Shown: positions 1 through 52,663 of the stretch, in pieces
Layout: each line of letters starts with the position of its first letter
Numbering within the stretch: position 1 is the first letter of the stretch
DNA from: Carcharhinus amblyrhynchos
Lineage: Eukaryota
DNA length: 64,000 nt
Direction of reading: 5' to 3'
Assembly: GCA_965287045.1 (NCBI GenBank)
Contig: OZ336885.1
Span: 61,008,001 to 61,072,000, forward strand
The notes under the pieces: generated by a model
Told to the model about the DNA's origin: nothing
What the model saw: only the letters and a program-made list of their open reading frames with translations
Database searches by the model: none
Translations under genes and position numbers: made by a program

Positions 1-172
1 GCGCACAGGGGCTTCGTAGTATTTAAATCAGTTTCCATAATTTAATGCAGCACATTAATGGAATTGAAGGCACTGCTAATCGTCAGATCCCGATCTTCTT
101 CCCATTATAACGTTACGGCCCGAGTCTTGCGCAGGAGAGGATACTAAAGACAGGGCTAGTATCTTTTGATAA

Positions 173-532
173 TGTTGATCATTTGTAAAGTTGAGGAACG
201 GCTTTAGGCAACCACCAGAAATCTAAGGTCACCTTCGTTGCACCGATGAGTAGAACAGACATCAACGCCAGTGCCGTTGCAAAGGCAAAAGTGACTCAAA
301 TCAGGTTAAAATAGGTTGGTCTGAAACGTCAAAGACCAAAGAGGGGAATAAAGGGTTAAAATATACAAGCAGGCACTGGCTCTCCGCGTGTGGCAGGGGA
401 AGAGAGAGGATGTAATTATGCGATCTCGACCATCATATGGTGGAAGAGGGACTCGCAGGTCAAAGTGAATTGCTCCTCTGTGTGCAAGTTTAATAAATTC
501 TGTTCACCAGTTGAAATCTTTCGTAGTGCAAC
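173..532 (+). repeat. Putative 5' LTR
   Basis: Begins TGTTG (173), AATAAA at 492-497, ends ...TGCAAC immediately before the PBS. The left boundary is uncertain. Confidence 0.55.
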
Positions 533-550
533 TGGCGCAGGGACAGTGTT
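533..550 (+). promoter_or_regulatory. Primer binding site, tRNA-Ser(TGA)-like
   Basis: TGGCGCAGGGA-CAGTGTT aligns with TGGCGCAGCGAGCAGGGTT, the complement of the vertebrate tRNA-Ser(TGA) 3' end as I recall it; lies directly after the LTR-like block. Confidence 0.7.
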
Positions 551-599
551 CCTTAGTCGTGGAGGCCATGGCCATTTTCAAAAATAGGAATCGGACAGA

Positions 600-1386
600 A
601 ATTTGAGTTCTGCCATGTGGGAAAGATGGCATTACATTACATCTGAAAAGTTTTAAGGAGAGTTAACCATTTCAGCGCATATTGATTTTATTTTGTGTCT
701 GCTTGTGTTGGTTGCAAAGGCAGCTGTAGAAATAATTAATCATGCACATTTTGTGCTTAAACTGGAAAGATTGTGATGAACTGTAAACGTCTTAATTTCG
801 TAGACGTGTTTAAAAGTGATGAAAATAAATCTTGTTTTGGATTAATCTGGATCAGGCTTTTCATTTAATTTGAAAATGTATTCTTGGTTGAATTGACAAT
901 GAAAACATAAATGGAAAGAGTATTCCAGAACGTTTGAAGTGATTATGTCAATCTGAATGAATTTACTCCGCCGTACTGAAACACACAGAGAATTAATACA
1001 TCCTCTTCCAGACAGGACGGAACTTTGTATTATAAGACTTGCAGTAATTTTAAGACATAAAATAAAAAAAAAATCTGAAAAGGGACTTACATTCGATAGA
1101 CTGCGACTTTGTGATTAACGATGGGAACTACTATACTGTCATAATGCATTGTAATTAAAGTATGTTACATGGATATGCAAAGTCAGTGAATCATCTAGAA
1201 AATTTGAGTAGTAGATCTGTTGTAAATTATGAATATGGGAAGATTGAAAACTGTATTAGATGCCAGACGGACTAAAAGGGAGAGCCCACCTATAACAACA
1301 AATTGACAGATGTATATAATTAGAGATGAGGAAAATAATTCAGTGGAATAAATGAGAAAAGAAAATGAACAGGATAATAAAAGATA
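600..1386 (+). pseudogene. gag: gag remnant (heavily degraded)
   Basis: Lies between PBS and protease; GRLKTVLDARRTKRESP (~1240-1295) resembles a capsid major-homology-region Q-x-x-x-E-S-P motif; purine-rich coding-like composition. Confidence 0.45.
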
Positions 1387-1985
1387 TAGAACATAGGACA
1401 CTACAGCACAAACAGGCCCTTTGGCCCACAAGTTGCGCCGATCATATCCATACCTACCAGGCCATAGAATTATCTGTAACTCCCAATCCAATTAAATCCC
1501 ATGTACTCATCCAGAAGTCTTTTAAAAGACCCCAGAGAATTCGCCTCTACCACCACCGACGGTAGCCGATTCCACTCATTCACCACCCTCTGAGTGAAAA
1601 ACTTACCCCTAACATATCCTCTGTACTTGCTTCCCAGAACCTTAAACCTGTGTCCTCTCGTAGCGACCATTTCAGCCCTGGGAATTAGCCTTTGAGAATC
1701 CACTCTATCTATTCCTATCAACATTTTATAAACCTCAATCAGGTCGCCTCTCAACCTATGTCTCCCCAGGGAGAAGAGACCAAGCTCCCTCAACCTATCT
1801 CCATAAGGCATGCCTCACAATCCAGGCAACATCCTTGTAAATCTCTTCTGCACCCTCTCAATAGCTTCCACATCTTTCCTGTAGTAAGGCGACCAGAACT
1901 GTGCACAATACTTCAAGTGGGGCCTGAGAAGGGTCTTATAAAGTTGCAGGATTTCCTCCCGACTCGTAAACTTAATCTCTCGATT
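1385..1985 (-). mobile_element. CR1 (HER1-like) LINE, 5'-truncated, inserted in the ERV
   Basis: ORF 1470-1811(-) LRELGLFSL..RLRGDLIEVYK..TRGH..FFTQRVVNEWNRLP is the CR1 ORF2 C-terminus; simple-repeat tail (ATAGAAC on +) at ~1385. Confidence 0.95.
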
Positions 1986-1994
1986 CTGTTAGAG

Positions 1995-2270
1995 AGGAGC
2001 TGACAGTAAACGGAAGAGGATAAAATCAAAAGTGGTATTCACTGGATACAAGAGGGACATGCAATGGGATTCTAGGAAGTAGAATGCTGTTTAGGTGATA
2101 ACTATAGATGAAGAAACAAAGTTTTCTTAAAAGAAAAAGAAAATAAGATAGGCACAAATGAGCATTTGAAAGCTCACAACACTGTTTCCTGAATTTGGCA
2201 TGATCCTGAGGTAAGAAAATGTGTTGTTAGGAAGTTACCTGAATAAAATGATGTTATTTAGGACAAGAAC
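1995..2270 (+). pseudogene. pro: Retroviral aspartic protease remnant
   Basis: ELTVNGRG*NQKWYSLDTRGTC (degenerate DTG active site, ~2042-2063) and VRKLPE*NDVILGQE (ILG-x-D/E motif, ~2226-2270). Confidence 0.6.
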
Positions 2271-2364
2271 AAACAATTAAAGTAAGTTATGGCATGGAAT
2301 CAAATTGATAGATTTGATTTTTATTTCAAAGATGTTCTTAGGTTGTAGTATTTGAAAAAAAAAC

Positions 2365-2710
2365 AGTTCCAAGGCTTTCCATCAGAAAAAACAGGTAAAA
2401 TAAGTATTGAAAACTTTTTAGCTGTTGTCAGAAGTTTTTTGGAAGATGATGCCCTAGTGGTAAAACCCTTATAGCATTTGATAAATGGAGGAAGGGCTAG
2501 TCAGGGGAAGATAGAGCGCGGCGGGGGGGGAGGGGGGGGGGGTTGGAGGCGGGGGTGGAGATGCAGCAGTAGAGGCTTTTTCAGATTTGAAGCAGGCTTT
2601 TTGAGAACACCAGTTTGGGGATTTCCTGACATCACCAAACCATTCCACATTTTCTGTGACGAAAATGATGGAATGCAGGCAGCTGCAGTTGCTCAGCAGC
2701 ACGGGACAAA
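2365..2710 (+). pseudogene. pol: pol fragment: RT thumb/connection (tether) region only
   Basis: RSFLEDDALVVKPL*HLINGG..., then DAAVEAFSDLKQA, then FLRTPVWGFPDITKPFHIFCDENDGMQAAAVAQQHG, matching the retroviral AF..LK..L...P.LG.PD..KPF.L...G...VL.Q.HG pattern; no YxDD palm upstream. Confidence 0.85.
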
Positions 2711-2830
2711 GTATTAGTGAAAGTGGCCCCTGAACAATTGACGTTTGCAGCCAAATGGACGAGACCCTACGACATCATTATGACTGGTGACACTTGTGCT
2801 TGTATTGAAAAGAAAACTGAGGAGTTATAA
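2705..2830 (+). pseudogene. pol: pol fragment: integrase C-terminal (GPY/F) domain
   Basis: DKVLVKVAPEQLTFAAKWTRPYDIIMTGDTCACIEKK matches the GD.VLVK...(P)KW.GPY.V pattern of retroviral integrase CTDs. Confidence 0.8.
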
Positions 2831-2924
2831 TCCAAAGGGTAATGGCTGAATCTACCAAAATCCCAATATAGGAAACCGACTGGTATGCTGAACGTACCAG
2901 GCATGAGTTAACGATCTACAACCC

Positions 2925-5250
2925 ATTGTATTTGGGCGTTCACGGTTATTTTTCGTTTATATGGGGTTTATGTCATTATTAAATGGGCAATATCATGAAT
3001 TCGACAAAGGTAACCTAAAATCGAATTTTCTCCTTTTATCCCCAGGATGTCAGCTTGCACATAAGGAGTTACATTAATAGTACCGATTTCTAAAACCTCG
3101 TACCGCAGGCTCCTTTTTTTTTAAACCCATAGGTCATGGAATACAAATGGGTACTTAACCTTTGCGGGCTGATCGTCCTGAGAGACTGTTCATAAGACAG
3201 CCCCCCTCCCTCCCGCCCCCTCACTACCATCCCCCCAACCCCCAGAATGATGTCAACCCGATTCTTCAAATGCAACCGACCTTGGCGGGTCGAAATCCCA
3301 TGGGCTGAGGAGCGTTGCACAATTTCACCGACTGAATCTGCATTATGTCAGGAAAAGACTGGGCTAAAGATAGGACTTATTTTAATGCTTGGCCACAAGT
3401 TATCCGGGCAAGGATGACGTGTTTCTCAAATGGACTTCAGATTGGACAACCGGTTGTCTGGACCACAGGGAAGTGCGCAAAAAGGTTGGATGTATCTTTG
3501 GAATTATACTTGCACCGAGGTTGGGCCCATCCCAATTACCCAAAAAGAGAGTCAGAGTATGCTGTTAGTAAGAGGAGACAGATGCAGTGGCATTTTTCCT
3601 GTATGTTTGTTTTTCCCTTCTATTCAAAGCCCTCTCCTATTCCCTCCCCAGAAATATTGTCATGCCCCATGGTTTTTTAAGGGACCCGAGAACGGGATTG
3701 TACTTTTAAACGAAGGAGAAATTTGATATGATAATGTGAAACATGAGATTGGACCTGTTCTGGTCAACATTTCTGCAATTCAAATACTGGAATACTGTTC
3801 AGAAAATCTAAAAACTTGTATGTTTTGTTTTCAGTAAATTTGATATGAGACAGGCTGCCGACGCCATGGGGACCTCTAGAGTTCGGAGACAGGGGGGAAA
3901 CAGAGGGACAGTTAGTGACGTGCTCATAGCTGTAAACACGGGAACCTCCCTGCTAAATCCTTTGGATATCCAGAGGTTAAATGGAAAGGTGGAACAACTT
4001 AAGTTGGTCATGAGGGATTTCCCAAAACGATCAGAGGAAACACAAGAGAGACAAGCAGCTTTGGGCGATGTGGGTATGGATATCCAGTAAAATGCAATAA
4101 CATGCTGGAGGACCATGCTCGCACGATTAAACACCTGATAGAACACTGTACGATTAGGACTGGAACAACTTTGTCATACATACGGCCTATGGATGGTGGG
4201 ACAGTTGAGACAGAATCTCGGTCAGATCAAAAGGGACGAGATACCCAATTGGATTGACAGCTTCCGCCTGGCATAGACAGCCACACGGACAGGAGCATTG
4301 GAAAAATGCATTCTCAAAGGCCTCAGCAGAGTACACCCAGTAGTTCCAGATTGTTGGCATGAGCGAAGCTACCGGGCTGGGGGTGTTTCTGATGTTCGCT
4401 AAAGTCACACTGGGCTCTGGACCATTTCCCCTATACCAATTGGAAAATATCGAGGTAGTGCGAGGAAATGCCTCCCTCTGTTATCACCTATCCTCGGCAG
4501 CAGCCATAGGTAGGGACAATTCATTCTAAGGAATCTCCCTTTTGGGGTCTAAGCAGAGGGGTGACATCATCGTTGCCCCCACGCTGTTGAATGGGGAGAC
4601 ATGAGCACATGTGGCTTCAACCGTACTGAAGGATGAGTCCTGGAGATTGAGCCAACCTATAGGCATTTTGCCCACACTGAATAAACGATCAAGGGCAGAT
4701 ACTTTGTCTCAGCCACGTCCTATCGTTATAATGGCCTGCTGTGCATGATCCCCCAAGTCAAGTACTTTTTCAGAGCGTTTTGGCCTCGTTAGAATAGGCG
4801 TAGCTAGGATCATTCAAGTTTGGTGCCGAAGCATACAGGCTATCAATGTCGCAAAGTCCATGATACCTTACAGGACAATAAAGAACCGGAACTCTCCCCT
4901 ATCCCACACCTGGCAGAAACTCTGTGAGAGCTAAGATTTTATCGGAAACTCAGTTTAGCTATACCACCAGCTACAAACAAAAATTCAGACTTTGGGAAAA
5001 GACACCGAAATTTTATTGCAGGAAGAGAGTTGGTGGCAGAGTGTTGGATTGGGGAAATAATATTAATATACACCCGTGGATTTGAATCATTTCACACATG
5101 ATAGCAGGCCTACAACTACTAGTAGTCCTTGCATGATGCAATATCGTTTGCTGGTCCAGCAAGAAATACCAGCAACACAAAAGCATGAAGGCCACTGCTA
5201 ATGTCTTAAGAGACATGGAGGGCAGGGTAATTCGGAGAAATTCAATTTGA
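2925..5250 (+). pseudogene. env: env pseudogene, class I fusion protein of F-like/lokiretrovirus type
   Basis: Hydrophobic segment IWAFTVIFRLYGVYVIIKW (~2929); GPENGIVLLNEG (~3682); furin site RVRR (~3878-3889); fusion-peptide-like TVSDVLIAVNTGTSLLN plus heptad DIQRLNGKVEQLKLVM; LGQIKRDEIPNWI; Cys-containing ectodomain; Trp-rich WWQSVLDWG and TM IISHMIAGLQLLVVLA (~5030-5135). Confidence 0.8.
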
Positions 5251-5378
5251 TATAACCGACTATTATTCCTGAAATCATGTGACTGCAGCACAATGAGGCA
5301 GGGAATAGTGGGCGATCCAAAACGTTTTAATATATTATAGAAACGTCGGCTTCAGGGCTGGTGAGAGCAGCCACTTAC

Positions 5379-5390
5379 AAAGCAGGGGAT
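5379..5390 (+). promoter_or_regulatory. Polypurine tract
   Basis: AAAGCAGGGGAT immediately before the TGTTG LTR start, downstream of the env stop. Confidence 0.7.
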
Positions 5391-6151
5391 TGTTGAAGGG
5401 AGTTTGAAAGACTAGTTTTGGAGGGAACAATATCCTCGGCTTAGGTGCCTTATAACAAATTATATTGAAAGATACCAACATAACAATTTATATTCAAAGG
5501 TACGTGTATAGCAATTTATAATAGAAGGAATAAATCGCATATAATGAATATATATGAACTTACCGTTGCACGATCATAACGGGCATGCATGAAAACTTCA
5601 ACATATTGAACATACAGGAACTCAGGATAGTAAAACGACACAAGATGGATGCTAGCTTTTAGCTACATTCCTGAACACCAATCGCTGGCTTCAGCATAAG
5701 CGTCCGCACAATGCACCACAGATACTGGTGACTGGCACTAGTCTATGATCTGAGGCTTCGGGTGAAAATCAGACATGGAGGGTTAGGGAAGACAATCATG
5801 GGGGCTGATAAGGAGGCCCACTCGACAAGGAGTATTGTACACTGAAGGGCTCCAGATAGGAAAAAGAAAGATAATATTGACAGAGGTACCATGAGTCGTG
5901 TCCATGAGACCACGAGCAGATCATGCACAAGCTCACCTTAAGTATTGTATTTTTTAATGTACATGCATGTCATTTGTAATCAACGTCGAGCCGTGAAAAA
6001 TGTATCAGAATGGATTTTTTTTTCCTTTGTTCGTCGGAGAGTGGCACTAAGTTTAACACAAGCCATCTCCCCGCTGGCAAAAATAAACCATTTCATGCGT
6101 GGACCAACCCTAAGCTTTGAGTGATTTCTCTGAGAGTCACTCCCGCTAACA
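5391..6151 (+). repeat. 3' LTR (~760 bp)
   Basis: Starts TGTTG after the PPT, AATAAA at 6082-6087, ends ...GCTAACA. Confidence 0.7.
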
Positions 6152-14169: not shown

Positions 14170-17100
14170 TTTAACGCCTTCATCCTGAACTATTCTGTTG
14201 AACCACTCTGAACGTTCTCCAATGTCAGCACAACCCCCTCAAGTAACGAGATCAAAAGTGAACACAATACATCAGATCTGATCTCAGCAACACCCTAGAC
14301 AAAAACAACAACAGCTCAATTCTTTATACTCCAGTCCTTTTGCAGCAAAAGGGGGATTGAATATAAAAGTAGGGAGGTCTTGCTGCAGCTGTATAGGGCA
14401 TTGGTGAGGCCGCAGCTGGAGTACTGTGTGCAGTTTTGGGCGCCGCACCTGCGCAAGGATATTTTGGCCCTGGAGGGAGTGCAGAGGAGGTTTACTAGGC
14501 TGATACCGGAGTTGAGGGGGTTGAGCTATGAGGAGAGGCTGAATAAACTGGGCTTGTACTCGTTAGAGTTTAGAAGAATGAGGGGAGATCTCATTGAGAC
14601 GTATAAGATGATGAATGGGATGGATAGGATAGAGGTGGAAAGACTCTTCCCGCTCAAAAAAGACAGTAGGACTAGGGGGCACAGCCTCAAGATAAAGGGG
14701 GGGCGGTTCAGAACGGAGTTGAGGAGGAACTTCTTCACTCAAAGGGTGGTGAATCTCTGGAATTCTCTGCCCGTTGAAGTGGTGGAGGCTGCCTCGCTAA
14801 ATATTTTTAAGAAGCGGGTTGATGGGTTTTTGATAAGAGAGGGGATTAAGGGTTATGGGGAGAGGGCGGGAAAGTGGAACTGAGCCACGACAGATCAGCC
14901 ATGATCTTATTGAATGGCGGGGCAGGCTCGAAGGGCCAGATGGCCTACTCCTGCTCCTATTTCTTATGTTCTTATGTTCTTATGTTCAAATGCCAACATA
15001 TTATTTGCCTTTAAAAAGTACATTCTGCATGTGCACACTGACGCGTGTGATTCATGGAGAAAGGCACCCTGATCCCCCTGCGTGCCTCATTTTGAATATG
15101 CTTACCATTTAGGTAATAATTTGTCTTTGAATGAGGTTTTTTCTGTAAAAGATGATATTCTCATACTCATCACATTAGCTCTTTACATTTCACCAGACAG
15201 GGAAATGCCACTTCATCCTGATGTTTGGATTTTTGTCAGTCAGCCAATCCTCAATCCAATTTGATACTTCACCCCAATTCTCTGCGATGTCAACTCCTGA
15301 ATCAGTCTTCTACGTGGCACTTTAGCAAACGCCTTCTGGAAGCCCAGTTTTACGGCATCCATAGGCAGTTGACTATCCACCTCGATGGCAACGTCACCAA
15401 ATGACTCAAGAACGCTTGTCAGGCATGATTTTTCCCTACATGAGATCATGCTCAGCAATTGTGGTTGTGCTTTGTTTTTCGAAATGTTTATTCACCTCCC
15501 CCTTAATGATAGATTCCAGCAACGTGCCGGCCAGAAATTTCAAGCTAACTGCCCTATAGTTACCTACTTTTAACCCACTCACTTTTTGAGTAGTGGCTTT
15601 AGATTTGTCTGTTCCATTCCACGGGAACCTTATCAGTGTCCAAGGAATTTTGTACTATCACAACCATTGCCTGCAGCGCCACTGCTGCGAACTCCTTTAA
15701 TACTCTCGGGTGCAGGTCGTAAATTCCAAGATTCTTATCTGACTTTCATATCATTAGTATGTTCAATACCCTCTCACTACTCATGCTAATTCCATCAAGT
15801 TGCTCTAAATTAACGATAGTTTGCTATTGGAAAATTGTTATATCTTCTTCCGTGGGCATAGAAGTAAAATGTTGGTTTCGTACAGCTGCCGTCTCTTTGT
15901 TTCCCTTTAACACTTCACTAGTATCCCCCTCAAAATGGCCAACATTTAGTTTCGTTATGCTCTTCCTCTTTGTATACTTGTAATTTAAAAAAAAATTGTG
16001 CTTACATTTTCTCCCAACCTTGTGAAGATGGCATGTTGTCAGATGGTCAGGAATTTTGTTGCTCCTTATTCCTGAATGTAAGGGACCTACATTTAACTTC
16101 AGTAATTATATATCGTCATAGAACTGCTTATCAATTTTCAGTCTTTGCTTTTCCAATTCCCCATGGGCTTCCTCTCATATTCCATTTTCCCTTCTTGAGC
16201 AGTTCCTGGGTTCTCATTTTCCGAATTCAAAACTTCTGTTAATCTTAAAGTCCGTTGCTTTACCTGGCCAAGTTCTATGCCTGTCACTTGGATCTCATAA
16301 TATTTCCAATTTTCCCTGTAATCCATGGTTTGGCCACCATTCCTATTTGACTTTTGTGTCAAACACGATGAAATGATATTTGGACTTCGTCCATGCATTC
16401 CTACAACGCCTGCCATTTTCCATAAACGTCAACCCTTCAAGCTAAGTTTGCTGATCTATTATTGCTTGCTCATGCCTAATGGCATCATAGAGTATTTTGT
16501 TTAGATTCGGGACCCGGGTCTCAGTACCAGCTAAGTAACTCTCCAGCTCGAAGGACAATTGAATCATATTATTGACATTCATCCCCAAGGGCAGTGTCAA
16601 GCAATGAGGTTGCCAATAGTTCCTTCATGATTGCAGACTGTCTAGTTGGAATTCTTCACGAATTCTTCCTCAACGGTCTTTTAACTGATTTCATTTTCCT
16701 AATCTATATGCTGATTACAATTAATCATATTTGGAGACGGGCATTAATCGCACGCATGTCTAATTTTACATTTAAGGTAACTGTCAAAATCACCACATCA
16801 TATCCGTTCACTTAACTGGACGATTAATTTAAAGACATATTACAAATCAATTCAAACTTTCTTTGTAACTCCTAATATGCTGTTTTTCGGACTTCATATT
16901 TGTCTTTTGTTATTTCCCCGTGTGTTTGGACAAAAAGAATTTCGTCTCAAAATGTTAACATTACTGTTCGTGTTCAGTGTATTTTCCACTGGGATCCCAG
17001 TTAAGTCTGGCACTTTGTTTCTCTGACTATCTTATTCGTCCTTCTGTATATGAGTCACGTACTTAATCACCTCCCAGCGCATCCCCACCCAGCCCGAAAT

Positions 17101-42812: not shown

Positions 42813-45800
42813 ACTATTCCCTATTATGAATTCTCATGTTTAAAATAGGCTACTCCCTGGATTATGTCGTACATTGCTTTCTCAGAAATTGCCTGTAATC
42901 GGATCCATGAAGCAATTCGTCAACTTATAGATGCCAATTTGATAATTCTAATGGACACCAATAAGACAAGATTTAGGATCTTGCCTAAATGGAGAAAATA
43001 GACAGACATTTAGAGGGGATTATACCATTTGAATCCAAGGAAATGAAAGCCATTGCCACTATAGTGTTGTAATCATCACTGGGGACAATAAGGAAGAAAT
43101 GGCTACTTTTGCAGGAATACTGAAGAATTGGAGCGCTGCGAAGTTGAATGAATTATATAATTAGGAAATCACATCAGTGAGGGTACTAAAAAAAAATTTA
43201 TAAATAAAACATCGCGTTAGAGCTAGCATATGTCGGGACACGAGTTCCTTGGATGAGAGTGGAAGAAAACTCCCTGAAAATTTTAACAGAGAAAGCAAAG
43301 TTTTGGAACAACTTGGACTGTGAAGGGTGAAATATAACAAACAAGACAAGACCGTACTGAATTGGCTGAGCCCACTGTTAATGAATATTATAACACCATT
43401 TTCCACAGGCGGTAAATTGAACCAGAAACGCAGCGTAACGACGTTCCAATGATCGACAGAAAGACTTGTGAGCAGAAGTTCAGATGAGGATGAAATGCGA
43501 TTATTTTTTTATTCGACAGTTTCCGTGGAGACTGTTGAGTTTGGTAAAGAGAAACAAAACACATTCATTCAGTTTCCCTAATACTTATTTTGGTTTTATT
43601 TCAGTTCACAGATTACGGGATGTAAAGCTGTATGGCATTTGTGTAAAAGTAGAAGTGCAAGGAGACATAGCTTTCCTATAGAGTTGTGTGCTTTCTAGAT
43701 ATATGTGTAAACCAAATTACGCCTTCACAAAATTTCCCCAAATAACCTCATGCACATGAAAAGTAGCAGCCAATCGCTTATGAATTCTGTGAATCATTCT
43801 TTATTATGAATTCACACATTTAAAATAGCCTGTTTCCTGGATTATTCCATACATTGGTTTACCAGAAATTGTGTGTGATCGGCTCTATGAAATAATCCGT
43901 CATTTTCTAGCTGAACATTTGATATTTCTAACCATACCAATAATATAAGATTCAAATGTCAATGTAAAACACGATTAGTGTACGCTGAAGTTGAGATCAG
44001 TGCTGTTTTCAGAGGAACTGCGTTTCTAAAACCAACATTCGGTCTTACGTGCAAGCATATTTGTTCCAGTCAGAAAAAAAAAACACTTTCACAACTGCAC
44101 TCTGCTTCTTGCCACTCTGCCCACTCTCCGACTCTGCTGCTACGTCTCGTTTTATTCTATGAAAGGTGAATTTGCTCTCTGGGGACGCTGTTTTTACTTT
44201 TTTTTCTTGAAAATCGAAGTACACATCGTGAACACCTTAATGGGCGTTTTTTTTTGTTTATCTTTCCGAAGTCACGACAAGGTTCTATAAAGAAGTCGGA
44301 CGTATCATTGCTCGATTTCACTTAACAAAGAGCATTAAAAAAAATCTATGGATTTCCCCTGGAAATAGTTTGTCCAACAACTTCAACTTCGACTTTGGGC
44401 CTTATTAAAGTTGTTAGGAGGCGCTGATGGGGCTCATGGCAAGCAACAACATTTAGAAAATGTTGGAAAATTCAAAACTTCGTTATTCAATGCCATATGT
44501 AGCAGGTTATTTGTCAACGCTAAGTACAGCCCCATAATACACCATTCTGATCAATCGGCTCAATTGCTCTTCTTTAACCAAAACGTGATAAATGTGTGTC
44601 TTGTCGGGGATAAAAAAGAGTGCAAAGTGTACATTTGTTAATTTAGCCGTGCACGCAGTCTTAATAATTTGATCCCCTTATCCAGCATCTAGAACAAACA
44701 TATTTATTTTGCAGCGACTTTCAATTTTCAAGGTGCTCTGGAGGAGCATGACAAAAGAAATGTAACATGGAATCACGTAAGACAAAGTGAGGTGACATGG
44801 CATAAATAAAGTTTTCCCAAAAGTATATGATTTAAAAATTTGCTCAAAAGATGGAAACCACGATAGGCCGACATGTGGAGAGGATTATGCCATTCCAATC
44901 CAAGAAATGGAAGCCATTGCTACTATAGTGTAAATATAATTGAGAACAATAATGAAGAAACGATCACAGCCGGAGGAACACTGACGTCTTGGAGGGCTGT
45001 AAATTTGAATTAATTATATAATTAAGAAATAACATTAGTGTGGGTCTTTGAAACAGATTGCATGAATAAAAACTTCACGTTAGAACGAGCCAATGTTGAA
45101 TTCTGTGGATGAGAGGGAAGGAAATCTCTCTGGAAATTTTAACAGATATGGCAAAGTTTTGGAATGTGAAAGGGGAAATCTCCCAAAAAAGCCAAGACTG
45201 TACTGAATTTTCCAAGCCGAGTGTAAATACATTTATAATATGATGTTGTTTGGACAGTAAATTGAACAATGAATTCAGCATTACAACTTTCCAATGGTCG
45301 GCAGAGAGATTTGTGAGCGGAAATTCATATAAGGATCAAATGCGATTGAGCTTTTCATTTGACAGTATCCACGGAGACTGACTTCAAAATAAAGTTTGAA
45401 TCTAACTGAAAATAAAACACCATTCATTCAGTTTCCCCATTATTTACATCGATTTTATTTACGTTCACGGAGTACTGGATGTAAAGCATTATGACATTTG
45501 TGTAAAAGTAGAAGTGCAAGGAAACGTGGCTTTCCTATAGAGCTGTGTACTGTCTAGCTATATGTTTAAACAAAATTACGCCTTCACAAAATTTCGCCAA
45601 AAACTCATGCACTTGAGAATTTGCAGTCGGTCAAACATGAATTCTATGAACCATTCTCTATTATGAATTCTTGTGTTTAAAATAGCCTCTTCCCTGGATT
45701 ATCCAGACATTGAATGATCAGAAATCGTCTATTATAAGGCCTATGAAGTAATCCGTTATTTTATGGCTGTCAATCTGATATTACTAATTGATAGCAATAA

Positions 45801-47472
45801 TATAAATTCTAATGTCAATGTAAAATATAACTAGTATACGCTGAAGTTGAGGTCAGTATTGTATCTTAAGAGGAACTGCGTTTCCAACACCAACATCAGG
45901 GATTATGTACAATAACATGTGTTCCAGTCAAAAGAAACACTTTCACCACTGCACTCTACTTGTTGCCATCTACCCGCTCTTCGACCGTGCTGCCACGTCT
46001 CGTTTTATTCTATCAAAGATTAATTTGCTCTCTTGGATTGCCTTGTTTAAACATAGTGTTTTTTTGAAAATCTAAGTACACGTCATGAACATCTTAACGG
46101 TCATGCCTAGTTTTATTTTTGCTTATTTTTCCGACGTCCCAGCGAGGTTCAATAAAAACAAAACGTTGGACATATCAGTGCACGATGTGATTTAATAAAC
46201 AGCATCTTCCCCGGAATTATTGCTACCAGCAAATTCAACATCGGGCCATATTTACGTTGTTACGAAGCGCTAATGCGGCTCATGGCAAGTGAAAAAACAT
46301 GCAAAAAGTTGGAAAATTCAAACCTTCATTATTCACTGTCAGTTGGACCAGGTGATTTGTCAACACTCAGTACAGCCCCATAATGCACCATTCTTACCAA
46401 TCGGCTGAACTTGCATGTCTTTAACCTTAAAGCTGTAAATATCTGCCTTGTCAGAAAAAAAGAACAAAGTGTACACTTGTTAGTCAGCCGTACACACAGT
46501 CTTAATAATTTGATCCCCGATCCAACATTTAGAAACGATATATATTTATTTTGCTGTGAAGTTTCAAGGTGCGATGGAGGAGCATGGCAAAAGTAATCGT
46601 GACACCAAACCATAGAAGGAAAAGTGAAGTGACATGCCACAAATGAAGTTTTCTCAAAGGCATATGATTTAAGGATTTGCTTAAAAGAAAAACAGCGCGG
46701 TAGGCAAACATTTAGAGGGGATTATATCATTCAAATCCAAGGAAATGGAAGACATTACTACTATAGTTAAGGATAATTGAGAACAATAATGAAGACGCGA
46801 CCATGACTGCAGGAAATCCAATGTCTTGGAACATTGTAAAGTTGTATGAATCATATGATTAGGAAATCACGTCAGTGAGGGCCTTAAAAAATCAATAAAA
46901 ACATCACGTTAGAGCGAACATATGTTGGCACACGAATTCCCCGGTTGTGATTGGAAGAAAACTCCTGCAAATTGTACCAAAAAAACAAAGTTTTGGAATA
47001 ACCCAAATTATGAGAGGTGAAATATATCAAACGAGCGAAGAGCGTATTTAATTTGCCGAGCACAGTTTTAATGAATCTTATAATACGATGTTTCCCAGCC
47101 GGTAAATTAAACCATGCAACCAGCATAGCGACCTTGCGATACGCGACGGAAAGATTTATGAGCAGAAATTCATATAAGGATCAAATGAGATTGAGCTATT
47201 TTATTGGACAGTTTCCATGGAGACTAACCAGTTTGGTATTTCAAAATAGAGTTCGAATCTCAAATGAAAACAAAATACCATTCATTCAGTTTCCCCGTCA
47301 TTTCCGTTCACGGAGTACTGGATGCAAAGCAGTATGACGTTTATGGCACAGTAGACGTGAAAGGAAAAGTAGTTTTCCTAGAGAGCTTGTGCGTTCGAGG
47401 TATACGCGTTAACCAAATTACAGTTTCGCCAAATAACCTCATGCACATGAAAAGTAGGAGTCGGTCAAACAT
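42801..47472. repeat. Diverged tandem triplication; units 42801-43779 (deleted copy), 43780-45636, 45637-47472
   Basis: Shared landmarks in all copies (tattatgaatt..tttaaaatag.ct..cctggattat; cattcattcagtttccc; ctcatgcac.tga); copies 2 and 3 also share tacgctgaagttgag..cacgtctcgttttattctat. Each unit appears to contain an antisense L2-like remnant. Confidence 0.92.
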
Positions 47473-51418: not shown

Positions 51419-51889
51419 TAAGGGGCAATTTACCACAGGCAATCAAACTAATATGTTAACCTTTCGACGGTAGGAGTAATCCGGAGCATCCAGAAATAAA
51501 ATCGAGACAGGGGCAGACAGCATGTGGAAACACCACACATATACGTTTGCGAAAAGACTTTCTGAACTCTTGTTCCAGGCTACCTTTGCCTAACTGGTTA
51601 ATAAAATTAATTTTCAGATTGTGAGATGATGATTTAATTTACCCATGGCCATGCTTCAACATTTCTTGATGATATACTTTATTTCCATCGTGTATAGTCC
51701 GCTTTAAATTGTGTTTACTCTTAAATACTTGAGACAATTCTTGTACTACTGCGCCATAGCTTCGTTGTGTTATATCTTTACATAGTTGTACTCTACACCT
51801 TGACCCTCAGAACTATGCTGTTCTTCATTATCAGTTCAATCCCTCCAAATTTCAGTCATTTAGTTTTCTTTCTGAAAACGAACGAACGT

Positions 51890-52663
51890 TATGCTACGGT
51901 GCAGAGGGACCTGGGGGTCCTTGTGCACGAATCGCAAAAACCCAGTCTGCAGGTGCAGCAGGTGATCAAGAAGGCGAATGCAATGTTGGCATTTATAACG
52001 AAGGGGCTAGAATATAAAAGTAGGGAGGTCTTGCTGCAACTGTATAGGGTACTGGTGAGGCCACAGCTGGAGTACTGTGGGCACTTCTGGTCGCTGCACT
52101 TGCGGAAGGATATATTGGCCTTGGCGGGAGTGCAGAGAAGGTTCACTAGGCTGATCCCGGAAGTGAGGGGGATAGCCCTTGAAGAGAGACTGAATAGACT
52201 GGGTCTGTGCTCGTTAGAATTTAGAAGGCTGAGGGCGGATCTTATAGAGATGTATAAGATAATGAAGGGGTGGATAGGGTAGAGGTAGGAAGATTATTCC
52301 CGCTTAGAAAGAATTAGCAGGACTAGAAGGCACACCCTCAAGATAAATGTGTGTGTGTTGGGGGGGCGGGGGTGGGGGTGGGGAGCAGTTTAGATCGGAG
52401 TTGAGGAGGAACTTCTTTACTCAAAGGGTGGTGAATCTCTGGAATTCTCTGCCCGTTGAAGTGGTGGAGACTACCTCGCTGAATATACTTAATTCATGGG
52501 TTAATAGGTTTCTGATATTCAAGGGCGTTTAGGGTTATGGGGAGAAAGCGGGAAAGTGGAGCTGATCCACTTCAGATCACCCATGATCTTATTGAATGGC
52601 GGGGCAGGCTCGAAGGGCTAGATGGCCTACTCCTGCTCTTATTCCTTATGTTCTTATGTTATG
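51890..52663 (+). mobile_element. CR1 LINE 3' part, same subfamily as 14346-14987
   Basis: QRDLGVLVHES..KANAMLAFITKGLEYKSREVLLQLYRVLVRPQLEYC; near-identical 3' UTR (ccatgatcttattgaatggcggggcaggctcgaaggg) and TTATGTTC tail. Confidence 0.96.

Follow-up and report, generated by a model that had tools for sequence, protein, structure and literature searches.

The window analyzed here is a 64,000-nucleotide stretch of the Carcharhinus amblyrhynchos genome (contig OZ336885.1, positions 61008001–61072000; 2.92 Gb of genome were searched), and its region 94–6151 is a genuine remnant of an endogenous retrovirus (ERV). An initial annotation, made from the sequence alone, had called positions 173–6151 a lokiretrovirus-like provirus with an envelope (Env) resembling the fusion protein (F) of Mononegavirales. 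The right end of that interval coincides with the end of the 3′ long terminal repeat (LTR) at 6151, but position 173 is not the start of an LTR, positions 94–300 encoding the C-terminus of Gag, and the element is neither a whole provirus nor a lokiretrovirus. It is a 5′-truncated, pol-less and chimeric copy, for which “provirus” is too strong a word. We consider it quite probable that the locus is a dead, fixed copy of a pol-less mosaic ERV, whose env family is predicted to be F-like and whose parent was an unclassified shark-fish lineage inside Retroviridae and not a lokiretrovirus.

On the forward strand, the element begins with the gag remnant (94–300), which matches the gag of loci L049, L046 and L034 at 40–45% in tblastx and is 67–75% identical in DNA to loci L067 and L021, directly past the gag matches of both. 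It is followed on the same strand by an AT-rich internal cassette (302–1387, continued at 1987–2705) held in common with a second ERV family, referred to as group D, of which 12 loci were sampled (L050–L061); the first part of the cassette is 70–79% identical in DNA to all 12, and the remainder was likewise located by its DNA match to group D. The two parts flank a 3′ fragment of a non-LTR retrotransposon on the reverse strand (1386–1985; 85% amino acid (aa) match to the C-terminus of ORF2 of a long interspersed nuclear element, LINE), which we take to be of the CR1 type. This fragment has no counterpart at the same place in the sister copies, and its depth in contig runs was about 10^5–10^6. 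Neither the LINE insertion nor the mosaic origin of 302–2705 appeared in the initial annotation. What is left of pol, all on the forward strand, is three scraps in disrupted order: a distal reverse transcriptase (RT) connection piece (1217–1378; 37% to residues 479–532 of protein P0085), an RT-connection (tether) piece (2379–2705; tblastn E 2e-10, with Pfam RT_RNaseH_2 at just E 0.09) and an integrase (IN) C-terminal domain (2702–2884; tblastn E 2e-12, 58% aa match to the integrase end of another family, family B). The last two bear out the RT-connection and integrase motifs that had been proposed. The integrase tail is fused straight to the tether, with the identical junction in five sisters (L012, L016, L018, L020 and L022), and the RT, RNase H and integrase cores are absent from the window copy. 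The protease motif that had also been reported was not recovered, as no D-T/S-G motif occurs in any forward frame of 91–1220 or in three sister stretches and no Pfam match was obtained. The forward-strand env consists of a part encoding an N-terminal Cys-rich extension (3108–3681) and a broken part encoding the F-type fusion core, pre-transmembrane (pre-TM) region, TM segment and tail (3682–5262). The 3′ LTR, also forward, was fixed at 5485–6151 because the sister copy L020/L021 has two LTRs, both of which match it (77%). No 5′ LTR was found by self-comparison of the window plus 10 kb upstream, a further 20 kb upstream gave no matches to the family, and tRNA and Rfam scans gave no matches.

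The window env (approximately 3108–5262) is split into 12 frame segments and carries 11 stops in 523 assigned codons. Its pieces are 32–42% identical to P0001, an intact natural homologue of 714 aa from Mustelus, and align to residues 43–711 of that protein; the extension was located by tblastn to an ORF of L018, to P0014 and to P0001, and the core by alignment to P0001 and by the fold of P0001. The GPENGIVL motif (at 3682), heptads, Cys-rich ectodomain, Trp-rich pre-TM region and TM segment described earlier were all seen, and the post-cleavage subunit measures about 460 codons, close to the ~450 proposed. CKS17-like and CX6CC motifs, whose absence had been noted, and a short TM subunit occur neither in the window env nor in any of 13 loci of family A (the family of the window copy) and family B. 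The account of the region upstream of the cleavage site did not hold. RVRR, which had been taken as the furin site, is found in 3 of the 8 copies covering the site; it lies five codons upstream of a conserved basic run, which all 7 of the 7 sisters have directly ahead of the fusion peptide and which has decayed in the window copy. The gene starts not near 3680 but near 3100–3270, which gives a pre-cleavage subunit of about 250 aa in place of ~65 codons. In P0001 a Cys-rich module comes first and the F core begins at about residue 170, the GP-x-G-x-VL motif standing at residue ~172, as compared to ~30 in the lokiretroviral Env of L104, where the core comes right after the signal peptide; with ~150 additional N-terminal residues, F2 is not of the short lokiretroviral kind. 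This extension (about 150 aa in intact homologues) is likely to be a receptor-binding module. In one distant relative the equivalent module resembles a V-set domain (E 0.045), and the predicted model is unreliable over this part.

At least 55 env DNA matches were found in the genome (40 of 99 candidates were scored), the relatives being older sisters at 72–82% (family A) and the younger, more distant family B. The closest named homologues are all from sharks (Mustelus, Chiloscyllium, Heterodontus and Pristiophorus), and phmmer with P0001 returned 58 relatives, from sharks and frogs for the named nine of ten looked up. The frog proteins P0042, P0065, P0033 and P0083 belong to the same env family. 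In Mantella, a 16-member env cluster, with 12 of the 15 listed members at 677 aa, suggests recent amplification. P0037, P0038 and P0051 are gene models in which an env piece is joined to Niban-like, F-box or cadherin sequence, perhaps through an annotation artefact or exonisation.

The prediction that this env family folds like paramyxovirus and pneumovirus F is supported by structural and profile comparisons. AlphaFold2 (AF2) modeling of the P0001 core (474 aa, 56-row alignment) gave a pLDDT of 75.9 and a pTM of 0.58. The matches listed by Foldseek from the PDB were all paramyxovirus or pneumovirus F proteins, those of respiratory syncytial virus (RSV) and human parainfluenza virus 3 (hPIV3) among them, with RSV F the best (E 7.9e-12). 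A fold search of BFVD returned fusogens of lispi-, baculo-, paramyxo-, epsilon- and foamy viruses, including the Envs of walleye epidermal hyperplasia virus 1 (WEHV1; 1.5e-9), walleye dermal sarcoma virus (WDSV; 5e-8) and feline foamy virus (FFV; 2e-5), and the ESM Atlas gave 0.91–0.95 to Baculo_F, Gypsy env and Fusion_gly clusters. Against a deep env profile, lokiretroviral Envs scored 68 and 63 bits (Fusion_gly itself matches loki Env at E 0.0022), WDSV 36.9 (profile positions 12–533), equine foamy virus (EFV) 26.0, family C 22.3, two simian-type foamy rows 20–21.5 and snakehead retrovirus (SnRV) 18.7 (shuffle maximum 8.4); shuffle maxima for the tested non-loki rows were 1.2–8.4 bits. The gamma Envs of murine leukemia virus (MuLV), feline leukemia virus (FeLV) and reticuloendotheliosis virus (REV) gave 0–4 bits, within the range of shuffles. 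The WDSV and SnRV Envs (L097, L068) match no envelope Pfam family, yet they match the F-type profile, and the WDSV and WEHV1 models match by fold too. The proposed likeness to a Mononegavirales F was thus upheld for the core of the intact homologue. WDSV, foamy and SnRV Envs match alongside F, so that an outcome named in the initial annotation as telling against it did occur in part, and since WDSV Env matches the same env family, the idea that this layout sets lokiretroviruses apart from gamma- and epsilonretroviruses was wrong in its epsilon part.

Several results weigh against the F assignment. None of 35 reference Envs scored significantly with a profile built from close shark sequences only, and when P0001 was used by itself the scores with WDSV and lokiretroviral Envs were weak, WDSV being the best. 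No Pfam F family was detected in the env pieces or in the 56 alignment members, and in PDB sequence and profile searches of env, F was not significant (E 0.65–5.6), other runs giving no F match. The fold was predicted for a homologue and not for the window copy, its TM-scores are 0.4–0.5 with high rmsd, and full-length AF2 on a shallow alignment reached a pLDDT of 33.

If the predicted fold is correct, Env would belong to the class Ib fusogens and act as a trimer that furin cleaves immediately ahead of the fusion peptide and that refolds to a six-helix bundle. Receptor binding, for which paramyxoviruses use a protein of its own, would fall to the N-terminal Cys-rich module. The predicted fold and the order of the subunits are those of class Ib fusion proteins (paramyxovirus and pneumovirus F, foamy Env and coronavirus spike; PMC11468914), but identity is 10–15%, and the shark binding module is likely N-terminal, as in spike, not inserted, as in foamy viruses, or separate, as in paramyxoviruses.

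Because the window copy has no RT core, the lineage was placed with L067, family B, P0085, P0086 and two natural lokiretrovirus loci (L103 and L104). The recovery of intact and pol-bearing relatives suggested in the initial annotation succeeded, yielding P0001, L067 and family B, and RT and IN trees were built. The RT tree (39 rows, LG+G4) held SnRV, WDSV, gamma, foamy, delta-like, Gypsy-like and loki references; 13 near-duplicates had been dropped from an earlier tree, and a further subset, 15 of 35 viral references and 2 loki rows were dropped from the 39-row tree. A viral-contig search and a phage collection gave no related loci, and the references came from motif scans. Their labels were taken from short motifs matched to a published RT alignment, WEHV-like for L073/L087 and delta-like for L078/L079 being inferred. 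L067 grouped with family B (98/95) and then with Mustelus and Heterodontus proteins (100/99), as sister to bony-fish ERVs (99/97). This shark clade lies inside the retrovirus clade (100/99), with lokiretroviruses as the outgroup, outside gamma/epsilon/delta (99/99) and outside the Gypsy (Metaviridae) clade; the shark and bony-fish clade stands in a basal polytomy with SnRV, foamy viruses and family C. In the approximately unbiased (AU) test, grouping with lokiretroviruses was rejected (p-AU 0.0004), contrary to the lokiretrovirus-like label first given to the element. The best pairwise RT score was with SnRV (257 bits; MuLV 225–228, WDSV 210, loki 185–188, foamy 139–166), and SnRV was also the best of 34 Gags for the Gag of P0086 (E 5e-11). 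Family B Gag gave zinc-knuckle matches to other rows first, and family A Gag pieces gave no significant match. The parent lineage is therefore likely an unclassified basal shark-fish lineage inside Retroviridae, of SnRV grade in RT and Gag.

This placement also meets evidence that points elsewhere. Grouping with SnRV was not rejected (p-AU 0.40), although neither the best RT tree nor the IN tree places SnRV with the shark lineage, and grouping with foamy viruses was not formally rejected (p-AU 0.074). RNase H scored best with WDSV (99.8 bits; SnRV 68.6, loki 12–17, EFV 16) and integrase with loki (193; L087 182, SnRV 101), while the IN tree, among whose rows CGIN1 is not included, leans epsilon/gamma (81/91). 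L067 is itself decayed (branch 0.72), and the LG+G4 trees use no mixture model. “SnRV-like” accordingly covers RT and Gag only. The pull of RNase H and integrase in other directions is in line with the domain shuffling that Wang and Han (2021; PMC7947760) reported. P0085 carries PF17919 and PF00075 (tether and RNase H), a trait common to all retroviruses, of which the window copy keeps tether scraps only.

SnRV and SnRV-like ERVs (clade Huo, PMC6001957; CmiERV lineage I, PMC4422223), which are known from a cartilaginous fish, are among the closest comparisons. Their Env also has an N-terminal extension before an F-type core and is homologous to the shark Env at the 18.7 bits given above, a likeness that is not specific, as other basal retroviruses score higher. 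On the other hand, the shark RNase H and IN score better with epsilon, gamma or loki references, and the shark Env has 714 codons and a short tail, as against 1134 codons in SnRV.

Among the other placements, the one that survives best, though we consider it unlikely, makes the element an epsilon-like ERV of clade Mu that carries a WDSV-type env and was misplaced in the RT tree by long branches. Among named exogenous viruses WDSV gives the best Env match to the profile, and its Env is also the best for P0001 alone, with homology across the whole ectodomain core; RNase H and IN are similar and lean epsilon/gamma; and two epsilon-like lineages occur in the elephant shark (Han 2015, PMC4422223). 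The shark RT, however, falls outside the 99/99 clade that holds the gamma, WDSV and WEHV-like rows, SnRV gives higher scores for both RT and Gag, and the shark Env is about 500 codons shorter than those of WDSV and WEHV. A foamy-like (clade Tu) ERV with a reduced foamy Env has very little probability. Foamy Env is F-like (PMC11468914), its best rows reach 20–26 bits, and the AU test leaves room for the grouping, but of the gamma, epsilon, loki, SnRV and foamy references the foamy ones score lowest in RT (fish foamy-like ERVs were not among the tree rows), no Foamy_virus_ENV match was obtained, Gag has zinc knuckles, and at 714 aa the shark Env bears its extra domain at the N-terminus and not inserted before the cleavage site. 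Equally hard to credit is a true elasmobranch lokiretrovirus, which would be the first in a cartilaginous fish. The gap exists, as no lokiretrovirus was reported from three chondrichthyan genomes (PMC7947760). Lokiretroviral Env is F-type, tops the deep profile and shares GP-x-G-x-VL at the start of its core, relatives of the shark element carry tether and RNase H as lokiretroviruses do, and family B integrase scores best with loki. At the RT level this reading is refuted, with the sampling used, by the tree and the AU test; RT has LPQG in place of the lokiretroviral CPFG, RNase H is of another type (12–17 bits versus 100 with WDSV), the IN tree does not join the two, and the extra domain of the shark Env sets it apart. 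With the close-shark-only profile, moreover, loki reached E 0.12–0.21, and it is frog and other distant members that make the connection.

The internal part of the element has a second origin. A search with 1990–3100 returned many loci ending at 2705–2708, and 12 of 12 group D loci match 567–1387 (in part) and 1987–2705 at 70–79%, then continue into more tether, with integrase in 11 of 12. No gag match was found in the 12 loci, and group D LTRs do not match the window LTR. A CKS17-like TM motif is present in 4 of 12, and TLV_coat reached E 0.0018, below the curated cut-off, in one of three tested. Group D consists of abundant gag-less defective ERVs with ~880-bp LTRs and tether and integrase remnants. 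L067, in contrast, has protease, RT, RNase H and integrase in order and matches the window in gag, env and LTR DNA at 67–82%. Judged from these shared sequences, family A is best read as a recombinant of an L067-type virus and group D that would have needed a helper. An L067-type virus with complete gag, pol and env may have recombined with a gag-less defective group D element, probably in co-packaged RNAs; from the first parent the product would have kept gag, env, LTRs and the tail of integrase, from group D a 2-kb cassette, and it would have been copied to at least six sites by the enzymes of a helper. The window copy would then have lost its 5′ half, taken the LINE insertion and decayed. 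VL30 and ETn are examples of trans-complemented ERVs. As in non-autonomous ERVs of that kind (PMC10435555), pol loss is common to the copies and sisters have intact LTRs, but the window family has retained gag and env and combines sequence from two families.

Related loci were also observed. Family B (L030–L048) is a younger F-type-env family with LTR pairs 88–98% identical, several copies of which are without the RT region. L049:3295–6832 is a deleted relative with gag, a protease-like motif and an integrase core, no RT match, and then the env start. An unrelated, very young ERV (LTR distance 0.008) is nested in a family A copy (L024:5789–L025:4396, C1 about 5.668–5.676 Mb); it has an ERV-L-like RT, a dUTPase after integrase and a 635-codon env scoring 22.3 bits with the F-type profile (shuffle maximum 6.3).

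The window copy is old, fixed, dead and drifting neutrally. Contigs of 4 of 4 other organisms examined (four studies) cross the LTR-flank junction, one of them crossing the truncation point, and the insertion occupies one and the same site in several related species, which are likely sharks. Divergence from orthologues was 35/2259 (1.5%) in env and 40/2185 (1.8%) in LTR plus flank, and 71/2211 (3.2%) and 66/2325 (2.8%) in a second comparison; differences to 13 sister loci were nearly flat over codon positions (0.205/0.174/0.219). The LTR–LTR distance was 0.106 in the two-LTR sister, 0.121 in group D and 0.018 and 0.039 in two family B copies. An age of about 24 to 240 million years is estimated for family A, depending on whether a mammalian or a tenfold lower shark rate is applied (Han 2015, PMC4422223). 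That the host has co-opted the env at this locus would fit a fixed insertion orthologous in all four organisms, but stops and frame shifts run throughout env, its rate is neutral relative to the flank and a protein role is already refuted, so that this has next to no probability. Elsewhere in the window, 42816–47387 comprises three diverged tandem units of ~1.85 kb each (69–88% in blocks; no Rfam or tRNA match), and 14299–14978 and 51725–52660 are further LINE 3′ fragments.

In the literature searched, to which subscription papers and bioRxiv supplements did not belong, we found no F-like Env described for shark, SnRV-like, class III or epsilon retroviruses. Han (2015; PMC4422223) reported SnRV-like and epsilon-like ERVs in the elephant shark and did not analyze Env type; bioRxiv 2023.10.26.564294 treats F-type errantivirus Env and defers vertebrate work to a later report. 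PMC12193657, PMC4977317, PMC13709493 and bioRxiv 2024.03.17.585361 were also compared. Taken by itself, the locus is a dead ERV copy of an ordinary kind; its value lies in the lineage, through which the carriers of F-type Env gain a shark branch inside Retroviridae. Because the env family also matches WDSV/WEHV, foamy and SnRV Envs, an F-like envelope is not a marker by which a lokiretrovirus can be called. The compact 714-aa protein offers a small model for the addition of a binding module to an F scaffold. Given the WDSV/WEHV and SnRV matches, the question of the ancestral retroviral envelope can be put to the test if Env folds are plotted onto the RT tree. F-type Env spans all the basal branches of the retroviruses, occurring in lokiretroviruses, foamy viruses, SnRV and WDSV/WEHV as well as in the shark-fish lineage and in a shark element of ERV-L-like type, and one defective shark backbone carries either an F-type or a gamma-type env, which would record a swap; for these reasons it is a serious possibility, falling just short of probable, that F-type (class Ib) Env was ancestral to all retroviruses and that gamma- and beta-type Envs were later replacements. 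If so, the four scenarios for Env origin left open by Wang and Han would be settled in favor of acquisition before the split of lokiretroviruses and retroviruses.

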